This document shows, piece after piece, positions 3,719 to 23,212 of a stretch of 64,000 nt of DNA (the first letter of the stretch is position 1; each line of letters opens with the position of its first letter). Origin of the DNA: a virus (taxonomy: Duplodnaviria; Caudoviricetes); the IMG/VR virus record IMGVR_UViG_3300018472_000401, positions 26,563-90,562 of that record; one strand, given 5' to 3'. Position numbers and translations under genes: made by a program. A model generated the notes under the pieces. The model worked only from the letters and a program-made list of their open reading frames with translations, ran no database searches and was not told where the DNA came from.

Positions 3719-3940
3719 ATGGAAACTGTATTTGACTACAACATCACCCCCGAAGAGTGCCAGTATATCGGCTTGCCCGACAAAGGTTTTTACTTGGAAA
3801 ACTGCACCAAGGACGATGCCAATATGGATTTGGCTTACCTCTTCCATTTACGGAACGAGAGGGAGAAAGCCAGCAGTTACGCTGACAAACTCCCTCTCGA
3901 AATGAGAAACGAATTTTGGCGGACGGTCACGCACCCGTGA
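3719..3940 (+). CDS. Small acidic protein, candidate immunity partner of the MuF C-terminal domain
   Basis: Own promoter; 3' end overlaps the MuF stop by 14 nt; function inferred. Confidence 0.6.
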   Translation: METVFDYNITPEECQYIGLPDKGFYLENCTKDDANMDLAYLFHLRNEREKASSYADKLPLEMRNEFWRTVTHP

Positions 3941-5840
3941 GTATCTTGCCAAACATATCATCAGAATGCCGGAGTGCTTTAATTAGCATTTCGGCTTTTT
4001 GTTTCTTTACCCCTTTTCCCACAAGGAACTTCACGATGCCCTCTGATACGTTCTCGTATGGCTCAACCATTATCAGTTTACTGAAATGTGCGTAAGCCTC
4101 CGAACTGGATATGTTCATAGATGCAAGCATTTCATCAAAATGCCGTACAGACCTGCTATAGCCGTAACCGCTTTTGATGATTTCCTTTTTGTGAGATACG
4201 CTGCCGCCAATAGCCCGGAGGAACTTCCCATAGGAGCGGCGTGCGCAGAACTGGTTTATACACTCCATTGCTGCTGTCAATTCAGGGGTACTCTTGCTCA
4301 CATCTTTCCAGCCGACAGCCCCTGCGTGGCGTATCTCGTGCCACAGGCTTTCAATGGCATATTCCTGATTAAATGTCAGAGGCGTTTTCCCGGCAATAGC
4401 CCTCATCGCTCCCTTGACCTCGTGGAGAGGGTTAAAAACAACCGATTTCCCTTGTGGGTCAATAACATGGTGGTCAGTATTGTATATCTTGATAGTGTTC
4501 CCATTCTCTTTGGCATAAGTACCTGTTTTCCTGCTATAAAAACGCTCGCAACACATCATTGCCCCGTCTTTGGCTTTTGACATCTTCACGGCTTTCAGCC
4601 CTCCGTAAAAGTCGCCCGGCTCTGCATCTGCATATTTCTCAATCATGGTGCGAACCTCTTTTTCAGTGATGAATGTCGGGTCTTTAATCTTGATTATCGC
4701 CTCCCTGACATCGGTAATAAGCCCCTTGTTTCCTCCTTTCGCCATAGAGCCGATGCCGTCCACCCAATCTTTCGGGATATATTTGCCGTTGTCCCTGATG
4801 AAGTACGGGACGGAGGTAGTAGTTTTTACACGCTCCCGGTTGCGTTCAAGCCACGCATTGAAATTCTCCGGCACATCCTTTACCGCCCCCGAAAACTTGT
4901 AATTGCTTACATCTTCTCCGGCAAGTATCTTCTGCTGGTAGTCCAAGAACTCCTCTTCCTTTGCCCGGATAGCGACTGCGGCACACTTGCAAAACGGATG
5001 CCAGCCCAGCCAAACAAAGTCTTTCGGATAATCGCCTTGCAGTTCATCGCAAATGTCATATATCGGGTGGCTGTTGTGGGATATGGAGATACGGATGCCG
5101 ACAACAAAGGGTATCTGCTTCCACCGCTCGCTGTCTGCCATACGGTACGCCATGTTGTTTTCCGTAGCGGTAAGCCGGAGGGCGTTCTTGTAACTGGAGC
5201 GGTACACGCCCTGTCCAGGGTGGTAGGCTTTCGCTGCCTTTGACAGACGGAGGACACCGTGCTTGTCCTTGACCCTGCGGAACAACTTGTTTGGCTCATT
5301 GAGATACTTGCGGACATCCCTTGAAAGGTCTGCGGCACTCTTACCCTCGCCAAGCCCCAAGTCAAGAGCAAGTTCCAGTTCCTCCTTGAACTGCTCCGTG
5401 ATGTTCCACACCCGGTTGGATAGCATCATCCCGGCTTCCTTGCGGAGTTGAAAGGCTGATAAAGCCTCCAAATTTGGCTGTTTCCATTGTGAAATTACGT
5501 CTTTCGGTAGCCCGGTTGAGGAAGTTATTGCATCAACCATAGCATTGTTTTTCTCGCAAGATAAAAGCCATTCCTCACGGTCGCCCGTTTCTATCACTCC
5601 TTGCAGCCCACGCCCAACGGAGCGCATGAGGTCGTTTATACGCTCCTGCACTGCCGGGTAGTCCGAAAGGTAAAAGGGCTTGTCGGGGTCTTTGAAGCCG
5701 GAAGCCTCGCCAATCCGTGCGCCCTCCGTTATGGCAGCATCGAACAAGGCATCAATCGCTTTCAGGCGTTTCTTGATGCTGGCGATGTGCTTCTTGTCGA
5801 ACACCCCGTAACTGAATTTGGTTGCATCTTTCTTTGCCAT
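3927..5840 (-). CDS. MuF / SPP1 gp7-like head morphogenesis protein with C-terminal HExxH metallopeptidase-like extension
   Basis: RLTATE...CDELQG.YPKDF.WLGWHPFCKC MuF signature; extension with WHEIRH and downstream E; next to portal. Confidence 0.8.
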   Translation of the reverse strand: MAKKDATKFSYGVFDKKHIASIKKRLKAIDALFDAAITEGARIGEASGFKDPDKPFYLSDYPAVQERINDLMRSVGRGLQGVIETGDREEWLLSCEKNNAMVDAITSSTGLPKDVISQWKQPNLEALSAFQLRKEAGMMLSNRVWNITEQFKEELELALDLGLGEGKSAADLSRDVRKYLNEPNKLFRRVKDKHGVLRLSKAAKAYHPGQGVYRSSYKNALRLTATENNMAYRMADSERWKQIPFVVGIRISISHNSHPIYDICDELQGDYPKDFVWLGWHPFCKCAAVAIRAKEEEFLDYQQKILAGEDVSNYKFSGAVKDVPENFNAWLERNRERVKTTTSVPYFIRDNGKYIPKDWVDGIGSMAKGGNKGLITDVREAIIKIKDPTFITEKEVRTMIEKYADAEPGDFYGGLKAVKMSKAKDGAMMCCERFYSRKTGTYAKENGNTIKIYNTDHHVIDPQGKSVVFNPLHEVKGAMRAIAGKTPLTFNQEYAIESLWHEIRHAGAVGWKDVSKSTPELTAAMECINQFCARRSYGKFLRAIGGSVSHKKEIIKSGYGYSRSVRHFDEMLASMNISSSEAYAHFSKLIMVEPYENVSEGIVKFLVGKGVKKQKAEMLIKALRHSDDMFGKILTGA

Positions 5841-5842
5841 GA

Positions 5843-6010
5843 TTACAGCCTCCTTTTGAATTGTCCGCATCCGTCACGGGTGAGGAAACGGCTGCGCTCC
5901 TTATGCAGTTTGCACCGACACAGGAACGGCTTGCCGTTTGCCCCAATCTCGTGCGGCTCGTAGGAATAGATACATTCCTTGCAGTGAATATCAAGTTTCT
6001 TCTTTGCCAT
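5843..6010 (-). CDS. Small Cys-rich (zinc-binding) protein
   Basis: CKEC...CRC...C pattern, packed between portal and MuF. Confidence 0.6.
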   Translation of the reverse strand: MAKKKLDIHCKECIYSYEPHEIGANGKPFLCRCKLHKERSRFLTRDGCGQFKRRL

Positions 6011-16301: not shown

Positions 16302-16443
16302 CGTCAGCCTCCCTTCCTGTTTCGTGGTGAATTATATCGGAGAAGTCGCAAGCATCAGCCGGGACATTCCCGAATTTTCCTTTTACACACTCTTCGTAAT
16401 ACTTGCAGTCAGCGCAACTACGTTTTTCTTTTGAATTTTCCAT
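16288..16443 (-). CDS. Small Cys-rich protein (51 aa)
   Basis: Hand-translated MENSKEKRSCADCKYYEEC...C; TAATG-coupled to the methyltransferase. Confidence 0.55.
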   Translation of the reverse strand: MENSKEKRSCADCKYYEECVKGKFGNVPADACDFSDIIHHETGREADDETD

Positions 16444-18047
16444 TATATTGCCTTTTTAAGTTCGTTCTTGGATAATGTCTTGCAAAGAGCCTCGCAGAGA
16501 ACTCGTGCCATGTTTACCTCAACCGCATTGCCGATAAACTTCTTTTGGTCTGCCTGTGAGCCTACCAGCACGTAATCTTCGGGAAAGCCCATAATCTTTT
16601 TCAGTTCGGGTATTTTCAGCATACGCATCTTGATGTCGATAATTCCGTAGAGAGCCATAAACTCCTTGATTTTAGCCGTCATCGGGCTATCAGTTGAATA
16701 GACTTCAATAAACACCTCGCCCGTTTCCGCTGTAACAAGATAAGGTGGCATTTTATCCATTCTTGCAATCAGGGTGAAACATGGCTTTTCGACTGAGCCT
16801 CCGACATTCTTGTATTGAGGGTTCATCAAGTAGTGGCGTTTGACCGTTACAAGGTTGAATTTCGGGTTGGTCGTTACAGTATTAGCCGGGACATCCACGG
16901 AAGCTGCCGTACCATTCCCGTACTGCATATCAATGAATTGTTCTGAACGAATAAGGGCTAACCTGTCTTTCGTTGTAACGGTGGGAGAGGGCATTTCAAC
17001 GGAATGGTTATTCCCGTTTCCGTAGTATGCCGATATAAACGCATGGTGGTCTATGGTCGTGATAGTCCCAGCTGGCTCGTTTACGGAGGTGTTCTTGCTG
17101 TCAGGATGTCCGCTGTACTGCTTTGAGAGGAAAGCGACCTGTGCGACCCCAAGCCTATTTTGCGTTGCCACCGTAGGACAAGGTTCATCAATACCTGGTG
17201 CATTATATTTCCCGGTTCTGCTCATGGAATTGTATTTAACAAGAAACGCCTCCTTGCCTCCTGCAATGAATTTTACCAGCCCAGCATATATACGCTCCAG
17301 TGTCTTTTCCGACAACGGTTTATCCCTGAATATCGTTTTGCCCTCGTCTGCGAAGTCAAGAACATCCTTGACGGGCTTCCACTTCGCCAAAGAGCCGAAC
17401 AGCGTATTTGTCCCGTTCTTGTCGTGGGTCTGACGTGGGAAGACAATAGGCAAGCCACCCTTTGCGAAGATGCCAAAAAAGCGTTTCCGGCTTGTGTATG
17501 CACCATAATCAGCAGCGTTGAGTATGCGGTGGTCAAACCTGTAACCGTATGATTTTACTTTGCGCACCCAACGGGTATAACTCTTGCCCTTATCCATAGA
17601 CACGGGCTTGCCGTTCTCGTCCACCTCACCCCAACTCATAAATTCCTCCACGTTCTCAATCTGAATATAGTCCGGGGCTATGGCTTCGATGTATCGGAAC
17701 AAATGTTCGGCAAGTGTCCGGCTGTCGGCATCCCTTGGCTGACCTCCCTTTGCTTTCGAGAAGTTGGTACATTCAAGTGAAGCCCACAAGACTACCAGCG
17801 CACCGGGATTGTCCTCACGGCACTTTTTCAGATGCTCTACAAGTGGGGACAATTCAAGCGTCCTGATGTCCTCCGTGAAGTGCAGCGCATCGGGGTGGTT
17901 TGAAGCGTGGGAGGCTATCGCATTTGCATCGTGGTTTACGCAAGCAATCACATCAGCGCATTGCTCACCGTTCAATCGTGCGGAATTTACGCCCGTGGAA
18001 GTTCCACCAGCACCGCAAAAGAGGTCTATGTATAATAACTTTTTCAT
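16443..18047 (-). CDS. dcm: C5-cytosine DNA methyltransferase
   Basis: IDLFCGAGG (motif I), SLECTNFS (motif IV, EC instead of PC), IENVEEF, R.RFF, IGNAV. Confidence 0.9.
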   Translation of the reverse strand: MKKLLYIDLFCGAGGTSTGVNSARLNGEQCADVIACVNHDANAIASHASNHPDALHFTEDIRTLELSPLVEHLKKCREDNPGALVVLWASLECTNFSKAKGGQPRDADSRTLAEHLFRYIEAIAPDYIQIENVEEFMSWGEVDENGKPVSMDKGKSYTRWVRKVKSYGYRFDHRILNAADYGAYTSRKRFFGIFAKGGLPIVFPRQTHDKNGTNTLFGSLAKWKPVKDVLDFADEGKTIFRDKPLSEKTLERIYAGLVKFIAGGKEAFLVKYNSMSRTGKYNAPGIDEPCPTVATQNRLGVAQVAFLSKQYSGHPDSKNTSVNEPAGTITTIDHHAFISAYYGNGNNHSVEMPSPTVTTKDRLALIRSEQFIDMQYGNGTAASVDVPANTVTTNPKFNLVTVKRHYLMNPQYKNVGGSVEKPCFTLIARMDKMPPYLVTAETGEVFIEVYSTDSPMTAKIKEFMALYGIIDIKMRMLKIPELKKIMGFPEDYVLVGSQADQKKFIGNAVEVNMARVLCEALCKTLSKNELKKAI

Positions 18048-22630: not shown

Positions 22631-22652
22631 GGGGCAGCGGAATTGCCGCCCC
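22631..22652. other. GC-rich hairpin downstream of the DGR-like target gene
   Basis: GGGGCAGC-GGAATT-GCCGCCCC. Confidence 0.6.
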
Positions 22653-22663
22653 GGTTAGTAATC

Positions 22664-23212
22664 TTATTTCTCTTCCTCCGGCTTGAAAACATAATCAGCC
22701 CAAATCTCAACGAACTGGCGACCTGCGTATTCCGAAAGTTCACTTGTCTTGAAGGCAAGCCGAGAACCAATGCCCGTGCTCGTGTCCGATGAATCGTTGT
22801 ACGTGAGCGCATACGCAACACCGCCATACGCATTCGCATAGCCGTCCGACCGATACACCACACGGCTTTTCTCTTCCTCACTCATTTCGTCAATCTCCGA
22901 CTGGGTATAGAGGTAGAACCACGGGAAATAGCGGTATTCATCCGTAGTGAACTGGGGCTTCCAGCCCTCGTTGAGAGCCGCTGCGATGATGCGCAGTTTC
23001 AGGTAGGCGATTACATCGGCTTCAAGTCCGAGGTCTTTCTTGTCCTGCACCCACTTGTCATGCTCAATGCCTAATTCATTACAGGCATCCTTGAATGTCT
23101 TGACACGCTCCATTACGTTTTGGGGCTTCTCGTCCACGAGTGTTAGCACTCCGTTTACCCATTCGGGCTTCTTGCCGTTAGGCACTTCGATTTCAATCTT
23201 TTTTGAGTTCAT
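22664..23212 (-). CDS. Early phage protein with a DGR variable-repeat-like C-terminus
   Basis: YRSDGYANAYGGVAYALTYNDSSDTSTGIGSRLAF; codon pattern consistent with an AAY-rich template. Confidence 0.65.
   Translation of the reverse strand: MNSKKIEIEVPNGKKPEWVNGVLTLVDEKPQNVMERVKTFKDACNELGIEHDKWVQDKKDLGLEADVIAYLKLRIIAAALNEGWKPQFTTDEYRYFPWFYLYTQSEIDEMSEEEKSRVVYRSDGYANAYGGVAYALTYNDSSDTSTGIGSRLAFKTSELSEYAGRQFVEIWADYVFKPEEEK

Follow-up and report, generated by a model that had tools for sequence, protein, structure and literature searches.

The target gene and its variable repeat

The stretch of DNA analysed here (hereafter the window, 64,000 nucleotides) corresponds to C1:26563-90562, C1 being the contig of a 90,562-bp provirus record in IMG/VR, and carries on its minus strand a small open reading frame, ORF182, with a variable repeat (VR2) of the type employed by diversity-generating retroelements (DGRs) near its 3' end. 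The features recognized at this locus are the following:

Window 22664-23212, minus strand: probable second DGR target gene of 182 amino acids (ORF182; phrog_11581 family), from the list of open reading frames
Window 22755-22865, minus strand: VR2, a 111-bp variable repeat homologous to the template repeat (TR) and to the first variable repeat (VR1), from alignment
Window 22771..22854, minus strand: mutagenised core of VR2, codons Y120 to I148, from column entropies in 116 homologues
Window 22751..22768, minus strand: IMH-like 3' boundary, GGTTCTCGGCTTGC followed by CTTC, from the TR/VR alignment and homologue columns
Window 22631..22652, minus strand: GC-rich hairpin with an 8-bp stem, GGGGCGGC/GCTGCCCC, and a 6-nt loop, from folding

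The core of VR2 comprises 11 hypervariable codons templated by AAY and seven partly variable ones, whose templates are TAT, ACG, GAT or ATT. A first-pass annotation made from the letters of the window had singled out this string of codons, which is indeed present on the minus strand within the 182-residue frame, and had described it as an orphan repeat, having recognized neither a reverse transcriptase (RT) gene nor a template in the 64 kb. The window is in fact devoid of both, and to that extent the term is apt; it does not extend to the 90.5-kb record, which holds an RT and a TR, both located upstream of the window start by a search of the entire record. Inspection of the ORF182 translation by eye revealed no signal peptide or hydrophobic N-terminal stretch, and the protein is therefore presumed to be cytoplasmic.

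The DGR cassette upstream of the window

The remaining elements of the system are encoded 21 kb ahead of the window, where the tail module has its distal end, in the order tail-fibre gene with VR1, TR, and RT:

C1:3934-5361, minus strand: reverse transcriptase, 475 amino acids, single open reading frame (PF00078, phrog_1423)
C1 5683..5573, directly upstream of the RT gene: TR, 111 bp, rich in AAC and AAT, from alignment
C1 5959..5849, upstream of the TR: VR1, 111 bp, at the C-terminus of a 2212-residue tail fibre

A six-frame search of the 90.5-kb record with PF00078 returned exactly one RT, with a score of 34 bits that lies above the cut-off, and the same protein matches phrog_1423, annotated as “reverse transcriptase,” with E = 1e-83. 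Its translation reads IGLRSSQ and YCDD, conforming to the motif pair (I/L/V)GxxxSQ and YxDD by which the DGR clade is recognized. The near-copy of about 100 bp beside an RT gene that had been proposed as the thing to look for thus exists, at the TR coordinates given above, and the translation of this TR, RVVYRSNNNANANGGVAYANTNNDSSNTNTNIGSRL, is almost exactly the AAC/AAT-rich template that had been predicted from VR2. The distance between cassette and VR2 amounts to 43.6 kb in the integrated prophage, and to approximately 12 kb across the attachment site when the genome is circular.

The tail fibre that carries VR1 (L002:5782-12420, minus strand, outside the window) contains, in addition to the C-terminal VR, a Laminin_G_3 domain and a CotH kinase-like domain; CotH domains fused to hypervariable lectin domains have been mentioned as unstudied by Benler et al. 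(PMC8008677). The C-terminus of the fibre displays a faint match to FGE-sulfatase (E = 0.03-0.09), and an AF2 model of its last 215 residues, built with 30 sequences, reached a pLDDT of 40, which is too poor for fold comparison. An accessory gene, avd or HRDC, is a common component of DGRs, though not a universal one; in six frames of the 90.5-kb record there was no match to Avd (PF05635). Comparable phages devoid of Avd appear in the available Table S3 of Dahlman et al. 2025 (PMC12629997). In addition, the RT gene has at its 3' end an overlap with a DUF4376 open reading frame of 221 residues (L001:393-1058, minus strand, equivalent to C1:3438-4103), which is read in a different frame; the RT protein bears an extra C-terminal domain that matches phrog_19665, and the succession RT-DUF4376-integrase recurs in phage BT-TP2. 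The DUF4376 frame or the C-terminal extension of the RT could be an unrecognised DGR accessory factor or a tail-fibre chaperone. A megablast comparison of 22 kb around the target gene and of the DGR locus with 50,697 phage records produced no match.

Template, repeats and 3' boundary

Comparison of the TR with VR2 reveals 12 mismatches in 111 positions, all 12 falling on the 30 adenines of the TR (hypergeometric p = 2.2e-8), while the 81 positions that are not adenine in the TR are identical throughout. VR1 behaves in the same manner, with 13 of 13 mismatches at TR adenines (p = 4e-9) and none at the other 81 positions, and the 11 differences between VR1 and VR2 also lie exclusively at TR adenines. 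This restriction to adenines rules out chance or codon bias as the origin of the pattern.

At the 3' end, VR1 and VR2 both read GCTTGC-CTTC while the TR reads GCTTGC-AAAC, an IMH*-like sequence, and thus the recipients hold an IMH-like element that is distinct from the element of the donor, as expected of a DGR. Residue A153 is nearly invariant and F154 invariant in 116 alleles, despite the presence of TR adenines at these sites, and a sister lineage displays the same kind of fixed difference between its TR and all of its VRs at the 3' boundary. By analogy with the BPP-1 model (PMC3240598, PMC5758913), we infer that this boundary acts as an IMH. In the G015 lineage (L080 compared with L042), VR2 has in common with the TR only the ~77 nt at the 3' end of the latter, whereas VR1 shares a longer stretch; the 5' homology boundary is therefore not the same for both targets of a single DGR.

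The GC hairpin downstream of VR2 that had been reported at about 100 bp is real, its position being 12 nt past the stop codon of ORF182 and 102 nt past the end of VR2. It is kept in close relatives, in one of which (L006) a substitution perfects the stem, and a similar, imperfect hairpin is found ~98 nt past VR1. A GC-rich inverted repeat downstream of the VR accompanies about a third of DGRs. The cruciforms described for phage DGRs lie 4-34 bp from the VR and have 4-nt GRNA loops (Guo et al. 2011, PMC3240598); within that interval there is no GC cruciform beside VR2 or VR1, the nearest GC hairpins being those at 102 and ~98 nt. The hairpin after the gene is also absent in some RT-bearing relatives. 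Identification of this element as a DGR cruciform was consequently rejected as unproven, on account of its distance from the VR and its inconsistency among relatives that have an RT. It may be a terminator-like element devoid of a T-run, or else a distant DGR cruciform.

A single prophage carries the cassette and VR2

Matches to PHROG and Pfam profiles provide the gene order of the record. From the left, one finds an integrase (C1:1-1203, plus strand), an endolysin, the RT and the TR; these are followed on the minus strand by the VR1 tail fibre, a 1422-residue tail protein, the tape measure, the major head protein and a MuF-like head protein, and, beyond the latter, by further open reading frames, a C5 DNA methylase, a helicase, a DUF2303-like protein, ORF142 and ORF182 with VR2. 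ORF66, ORF96, a YqaJ exonuclease and a phrog_3657 protein come after ORF182. The prophage extends from C1:1 to approximately 54.7 kb, and is collinear over C1:1-54726, at 87-99% identity, with G001, a 56,192-bp IMG/VR genome rated as 100% complete that possesses its own RT, TR, VR1 and VR2. Owing to this collinearity, the cassette and VR2 can be assigned to the same temperate phage of ~56 kb.

To the right of ~54.7 kb, in the Mu-like part of the record, the six-frame search of the 90.5 kb with PF00078 detected no RT. The first-pass annotation had suggested that the target is hypermutated from a distant DGR, situated either in the tail region of this phage or in the neighbouring Mu-like phage. 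The general proposal agrees with the finding that the sole RT of the record sits in the prophage that also carries VR2, and the first of the two donors is the one that stands, whereas the Mu-like neighbour is rejected, since no RT lies in its part of the 90.5-kb record.

As a separate observation, the MuF-like head protein (647 residues, window 3927-5870, minus strand) also matches phrog_16625, “Bxa ADP-ribosyl transferase,” over residues 212-366 (E = 1.6e-81), a combination that suggests a fusion of the MuF-toxin type.

Population variation of VR2

The activity of VR2 was judged from variation in the population rather than from this particular lysogen. Clustered at 90% identity, the matches of a protein search with ORF182 number 5581; the 120 best are 90-96% identical to the query, and the VRs of 116 of these could be aligned. 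All 116 VR alleles are distinct. Variation per site amounts to 0.39 within residues 120-148, as compared to 0.016 elsewhere, and all columns whose entropy exceeds 0.8 bit are matched by adenine-containing codons in the TR (11 AAY, two TAT, three ACG, one GAT and one ATT). The 11 AAY-templated sites hold exclusively residues that are encoded by NNY codons in the 116 homologues. The variation among homologues is thereby confined to the first and second positions of NNY codons and to other adenine-containing codons, as had been anticipated for a genuine VR. The repertoire that these codons allow, 15^11 x 4^7, corresponds to about 1.4e17 variants.

Further evidence stems from G001, whose TR has T replaced by G at a non-adenine position (ATTGGGTCTCGG), a substitution also present in both of its VRs. 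Continued copying of TR information into both targets would produce such sharing, which, as read from the sequences, represents concerted evolution through homing. Taken together, the adenine-only mismatches, the 116 distinct alleles and the appearance of the G001 template change in both VRs indicate that VR2 is a live second target and not an orphan; in all probability, it is actively diversified, as a second target not adjacent to the cassette, by the DGR of the same ~56-kb temperate prophage, which is of siphovirus type and belongs to a gut Bacteroides.

In this scheme, TR RNA would be reverse-transcribed with adenine-specific infidelity, and the resulting cDNA would take the place of the corresponding 111 bp of VR1 or VR2. 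Anchoring of the cDNA would be due to the common 3' segment, GGTTCTCGGCTTGC with CTTC, by which the recipients would also be told from the donor, which reads AAAC. The expected outcome is the rewriting of 18 codons in a small, early-expressed and probably cytoplasmic protein.

One VR2 allele (L007:3325-3450) displays a 15-nt in-frame deletion that removes the residues equivalent to 128-132 of the query (A-Y-G-G-V), and reads SSSNAG-AYAITY.

Relatives that have no RT

An RT is present in only four of the 14 family-bearing records rated as at least 90% complete, the other 10 having given no match in a protein search with the sister RT. A VR-like segment nevertheless occurs in complete or near-complete genomes that have neither RT nor TR, namely those of loci L035 (G011), L037 (G013), L036, L045, L047 and L056. 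When the segments of G011 and G013 are compared with the TR of the related, RT-bearing G015 (L042/L080), 15-16 mismatches are found at adenines, and none at the 56 non-adenine positions. Some alleles recur unchanged across many samples: L011-L020 share one, while L045, L047 and L048 share another, of which L049 and L050 carry close variants. In some of the RT-less lineages, the VRs also contain changes at non-adenine positions. The simplest reading of these sequences is that loss of the DGR, or module exchange, left frozen VRs behind, although the VRs of such relatives might also be diversified in trans by co-resident phages.

These relatives bear on two other explanations for VR2. The first is that it is a fossil of past homing or gene conversion, in a lineage where diversification has ceased. 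The identical segments found across many samples indicate that frozen VRs do exist in the family, and non-adenine changes accumulate in some of the RT-less relatives. The VR2 of the window, on the contrary, equals the TR at all 81 non-adenine positions, the 116 close homologues all have different VRs, and the non-adenine change specific to the TR of sister G001 has been copied into its VR2, all of which renders a fossil very unlikely. The second explanation is that an element other than this phage, for instance the Mu-like prophage next to it or the host chromosome, holds a DGR that diversifies VR2 in trans. This explanation draws on the ability of DGR components to act in trans (PMC5758913) and on the adenine-only divergence of the complete, RT-less G011 and G013 from the TR of a sister phage; it is scarcely credible for VR2 itself, given that the only RT of the record shares a prophage with it and the Mu-like part has none, that the TR in cis is identical to VR2 at every non-adenine position, and that the TR and VRs co-vary within genomes. 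An active target of the resident DGR is thus the reading that is retained.

Family and fold of the target protein

ORF182 matches phrog_11581 over residues 28-177 (E = 1.3e-53), and an exhaustive search places the size of this family at 1899 representatives at 50% identity. An AF2 model built with 79 diverse homologues displays a mean pLDDT of 84 outside the VR and 46-60 for VR residues 120-148, and predicts an N-terminal beta-hairpin and several helices. No fold could be assigned by Foldseek comparison of this model with the PDB (best E = 2) or by VIA-align against 48,161 chains (best Z = 4.0), and a profile search of the PDB with ORF182 returned nothing below E = 0.03. Pfam searches with ORF182 and 79 family members yielded only noise (RxLR_effector at E = 0.009 and similar matches), none of the 79 members matching FGE-sulfatase, Lectin_C or DUF1566 at E <= 0.1. 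Matches in BFVD are limited to uncharacterised proteins of siphoviruses, podoviruses and crAss-like viruses, and those in the ESM Atlas to unnamed viral clusters with no structure. A C-type lectin family or fold, as in DGR variable proteins of the Mtd/TvpA/FGE-like kind, therefore finds no match for the 182-residue protein in Pfam, Foldseek or VIA-align, the VR part of the model being of low confidence. The lectin-fold label attached to the repeat in the first-pass annotation is accordingly tentative.

Both BLASTP and profile-profile alignment (hhalign) align ORF182 with the C-terminus of the tail fibre over ~40-44 residues of the VR only, and there is no detectable similarity between the ORF182 scaffold and the VR domain of the fibre outside this segment. 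A Pfam search of 10 longer, N-terminally extended homologues gave no informative fusion, but sub-threshold Tad2-like and DUF5886 matches; the Tad2-like match (Thoeris anti-defence 2) is that of P0173, an extended homologue of 244 residues, with E = 0.0011 and 19.9 bits for a cut-off of 25.

Genomic context and proposed function

The ORF182 gene is flanked on one side by the YqaJ exonuclease and the phrog_3657 protein, and on the other by a helicase. Comparison of 24 diverse IMG/VR loci placed the family gene within a recombination/replication module in at least 12 of them, the flanks consisting either of phrog_3657 protein, YqaJ exonuclease and helicase, or of SbcC-like recombinase, RecT, metal-dependent hydrolase and DnaD-like loader. 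Members of the family occupy such modules in numerous phages of Bacteroidota. In other loci (L036, L037, L045, L047, L056 and L032, compared with L042), only a ~620-bp gene is shared, at 86-93% identity, amid dissimilar flanks, which indicates transfer of the family gene as a cassette from one phage backbone to another. Two copies seem to be present at locus L022. In the isolate phage BT-TP2, the homologue comes after cro-like regulators, with the integrase between it and the RT, which is ~2.6 kb away. The context in BT-TP2 and the location within recombination/replication modules support an early, non-structural role for ORF182.

A C5 cytosine DNA methylase of 534 residues (window 16443-18047, minus strand; PF00145, E = 3.6e-30) is encoded 4.6 kb from the VR2 gene, a proximity in keeping with the published statement that counter-defence genes are found close to distal VRs.

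Gam sits in the Red module of phage lambda. By analogy with Gam and lambda Red, ORF182 could serve as a programmable intracellular binder in phage-host or phage-phage conflict, for example by neutralising variable host nucleases or defence proteins beside a RecT/exonuclease module; the only hint of such a function is the sub-threshold Tad2-like match in one extended homologue. A broader proposal, which is put forward tentatively and has a small chance of being right as a whole, is that phrog_11581 represents a new, non-lectin scaffold onto which the VR cassette of a tail fibre was grafted, yielding a DGR-programmable “intrabody” against variable host nucleases, defence proteins or rival phages, and that orphan copies are re-diversified in trans by co-resident DGR phages.

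The function could also be of another kind, the 182-residue protein being a virion-associated or secreted receptor-binding accessory despite the location of its gene. Nearly all characterised DGR targets of phages are tail or receptor-binding proteins (PMC8144416, PMC10743442), and a distant homologue in phage Versailles (29.6% identity) is annotated as “tail protein.” Nonetheless, the absence of a visible signal peptide or hydrophobic N-terminus, the embedding of the gene in recombination/replication modules of many unrelated phages, and the restriction of tail-fibre homology to 44 VR columns make a virion accessory distinctly improbable, and a protein acting inside the cell is the reading that is carried forward below.

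Comparison with known systems

Distal second VRs in gut prophages have already been published (Wu et al. 2018; Benler et al. 2021; Dahlman et al. 2025), and the present case adds to them. Wu et al. 2018 (PMC5758913) found that numerous DGRs associated with phages have two targets, one of them adjacent and the other non-adjacent but within 50 kb. The system described here is alike in that both targets belong to the same prophage, one beside the TR and RT and the other elsewhere within 50 kb, and in that the 3' boundary would here too be set by an IMH and the 5' one by the extent of homology; their survey neither characterises the phrog_11581 family nor assigns it a function.

Benler et al. 2021 (PMC8008677) described for Quimbyvirus a second, non-structural DGR target located among methyltransferases and a tRNA ligase, and assigned CLec domains to the Quimbyvirus targets by HHpred. 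Protein QVQ57199.1 of LoVEphage (MW660583.1), a phrog_11581 member, is 43% identical to ORF182 over residues 35-176 (tblastn), and a VR near the C-terminus of this homologue matches both a TR and the VR of a tail-collar fibre 15.5 kb away, beside a split RT. A family member with a VR close to its C-terminus, for which the TR is the one used by the VR of a tail fibre as well, is thus found in this phage, G001, G015 and LoVEphage. From its description, namely an RT split over several open reading frames and the gene neighbourhood, rather than from sequence comparison, LoVEphage can be equated with Quimbyvirus; if so, the published second target would belong to the same family as ORF182. The second target of LoVEphage is likewise non-structural and lies near DNA methyltransferases. 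The phage of the window differs in being an unrelated, integrase-bearing prophage of siphovirus type and ~56 kb, with an RT of 475 residues in a single open reading frame, a primary target that is a 2212-residue CotH/LamG tail fibre, a different TR sequence, and a RecT-like/YqaJ/helicase module in place of the methyltransferase/RtcB island.

The available text of Dahlman et al. 2025 (PMC12629997) describes four species of inducible gut prophage in which a second, distal VR is located close to genes of counter-defence. Among these, Bacteroides phage Shia, as listed in the available Table S3, measures 56.7-58 kb and has an integrase, an RT, no Avd and two VRs; by description, which is the level of the comparison, the phage studied here resembles it in size, in the presence of an integrase and of an RT with no Avd, and in having two VRs, the second near a DNA methyltransferase. 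The target family, its population diversity and its fold are not described in the available text and supplements of that work.

Compared with the Mtd/Avd/TR/Brt system of BPP-1, the likeness consists of adenine-specific mutagenic retrohoming from the TR to the C-terminal VR of a tail fibre, and of the IMH/IMH* distinction between recipient and donor. The differences are that no Avd was found in the record, that no cruciform lies within 4-34 bp of the VR (PMC3240598), and that an extra target exists in an early gene.

What the present analysis adds is a single, widespread family, of which the 1899 representatives reach as far as LoVEphage and crAss-like viruses, that is repeatedly embedded in RecT/exonuclease/replication modules, has only the VR in common with the tail fibre, and is retained, its VRs apparently frozen, by phages from which the DGR has been lost. 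If a hypervariable protein is indeed produced at an early stage within the cell, the phage would be diversifying a second interaction, this one intracellular. The family should offer an abundant and culturable system in which to study the role of non-structural DGR targets, with hosts that include strains of the B. thetaiotaomicron type, to judge from the hosts given in the available descriptions of the homologue-bearing isolates BT-TP2 and Shia.
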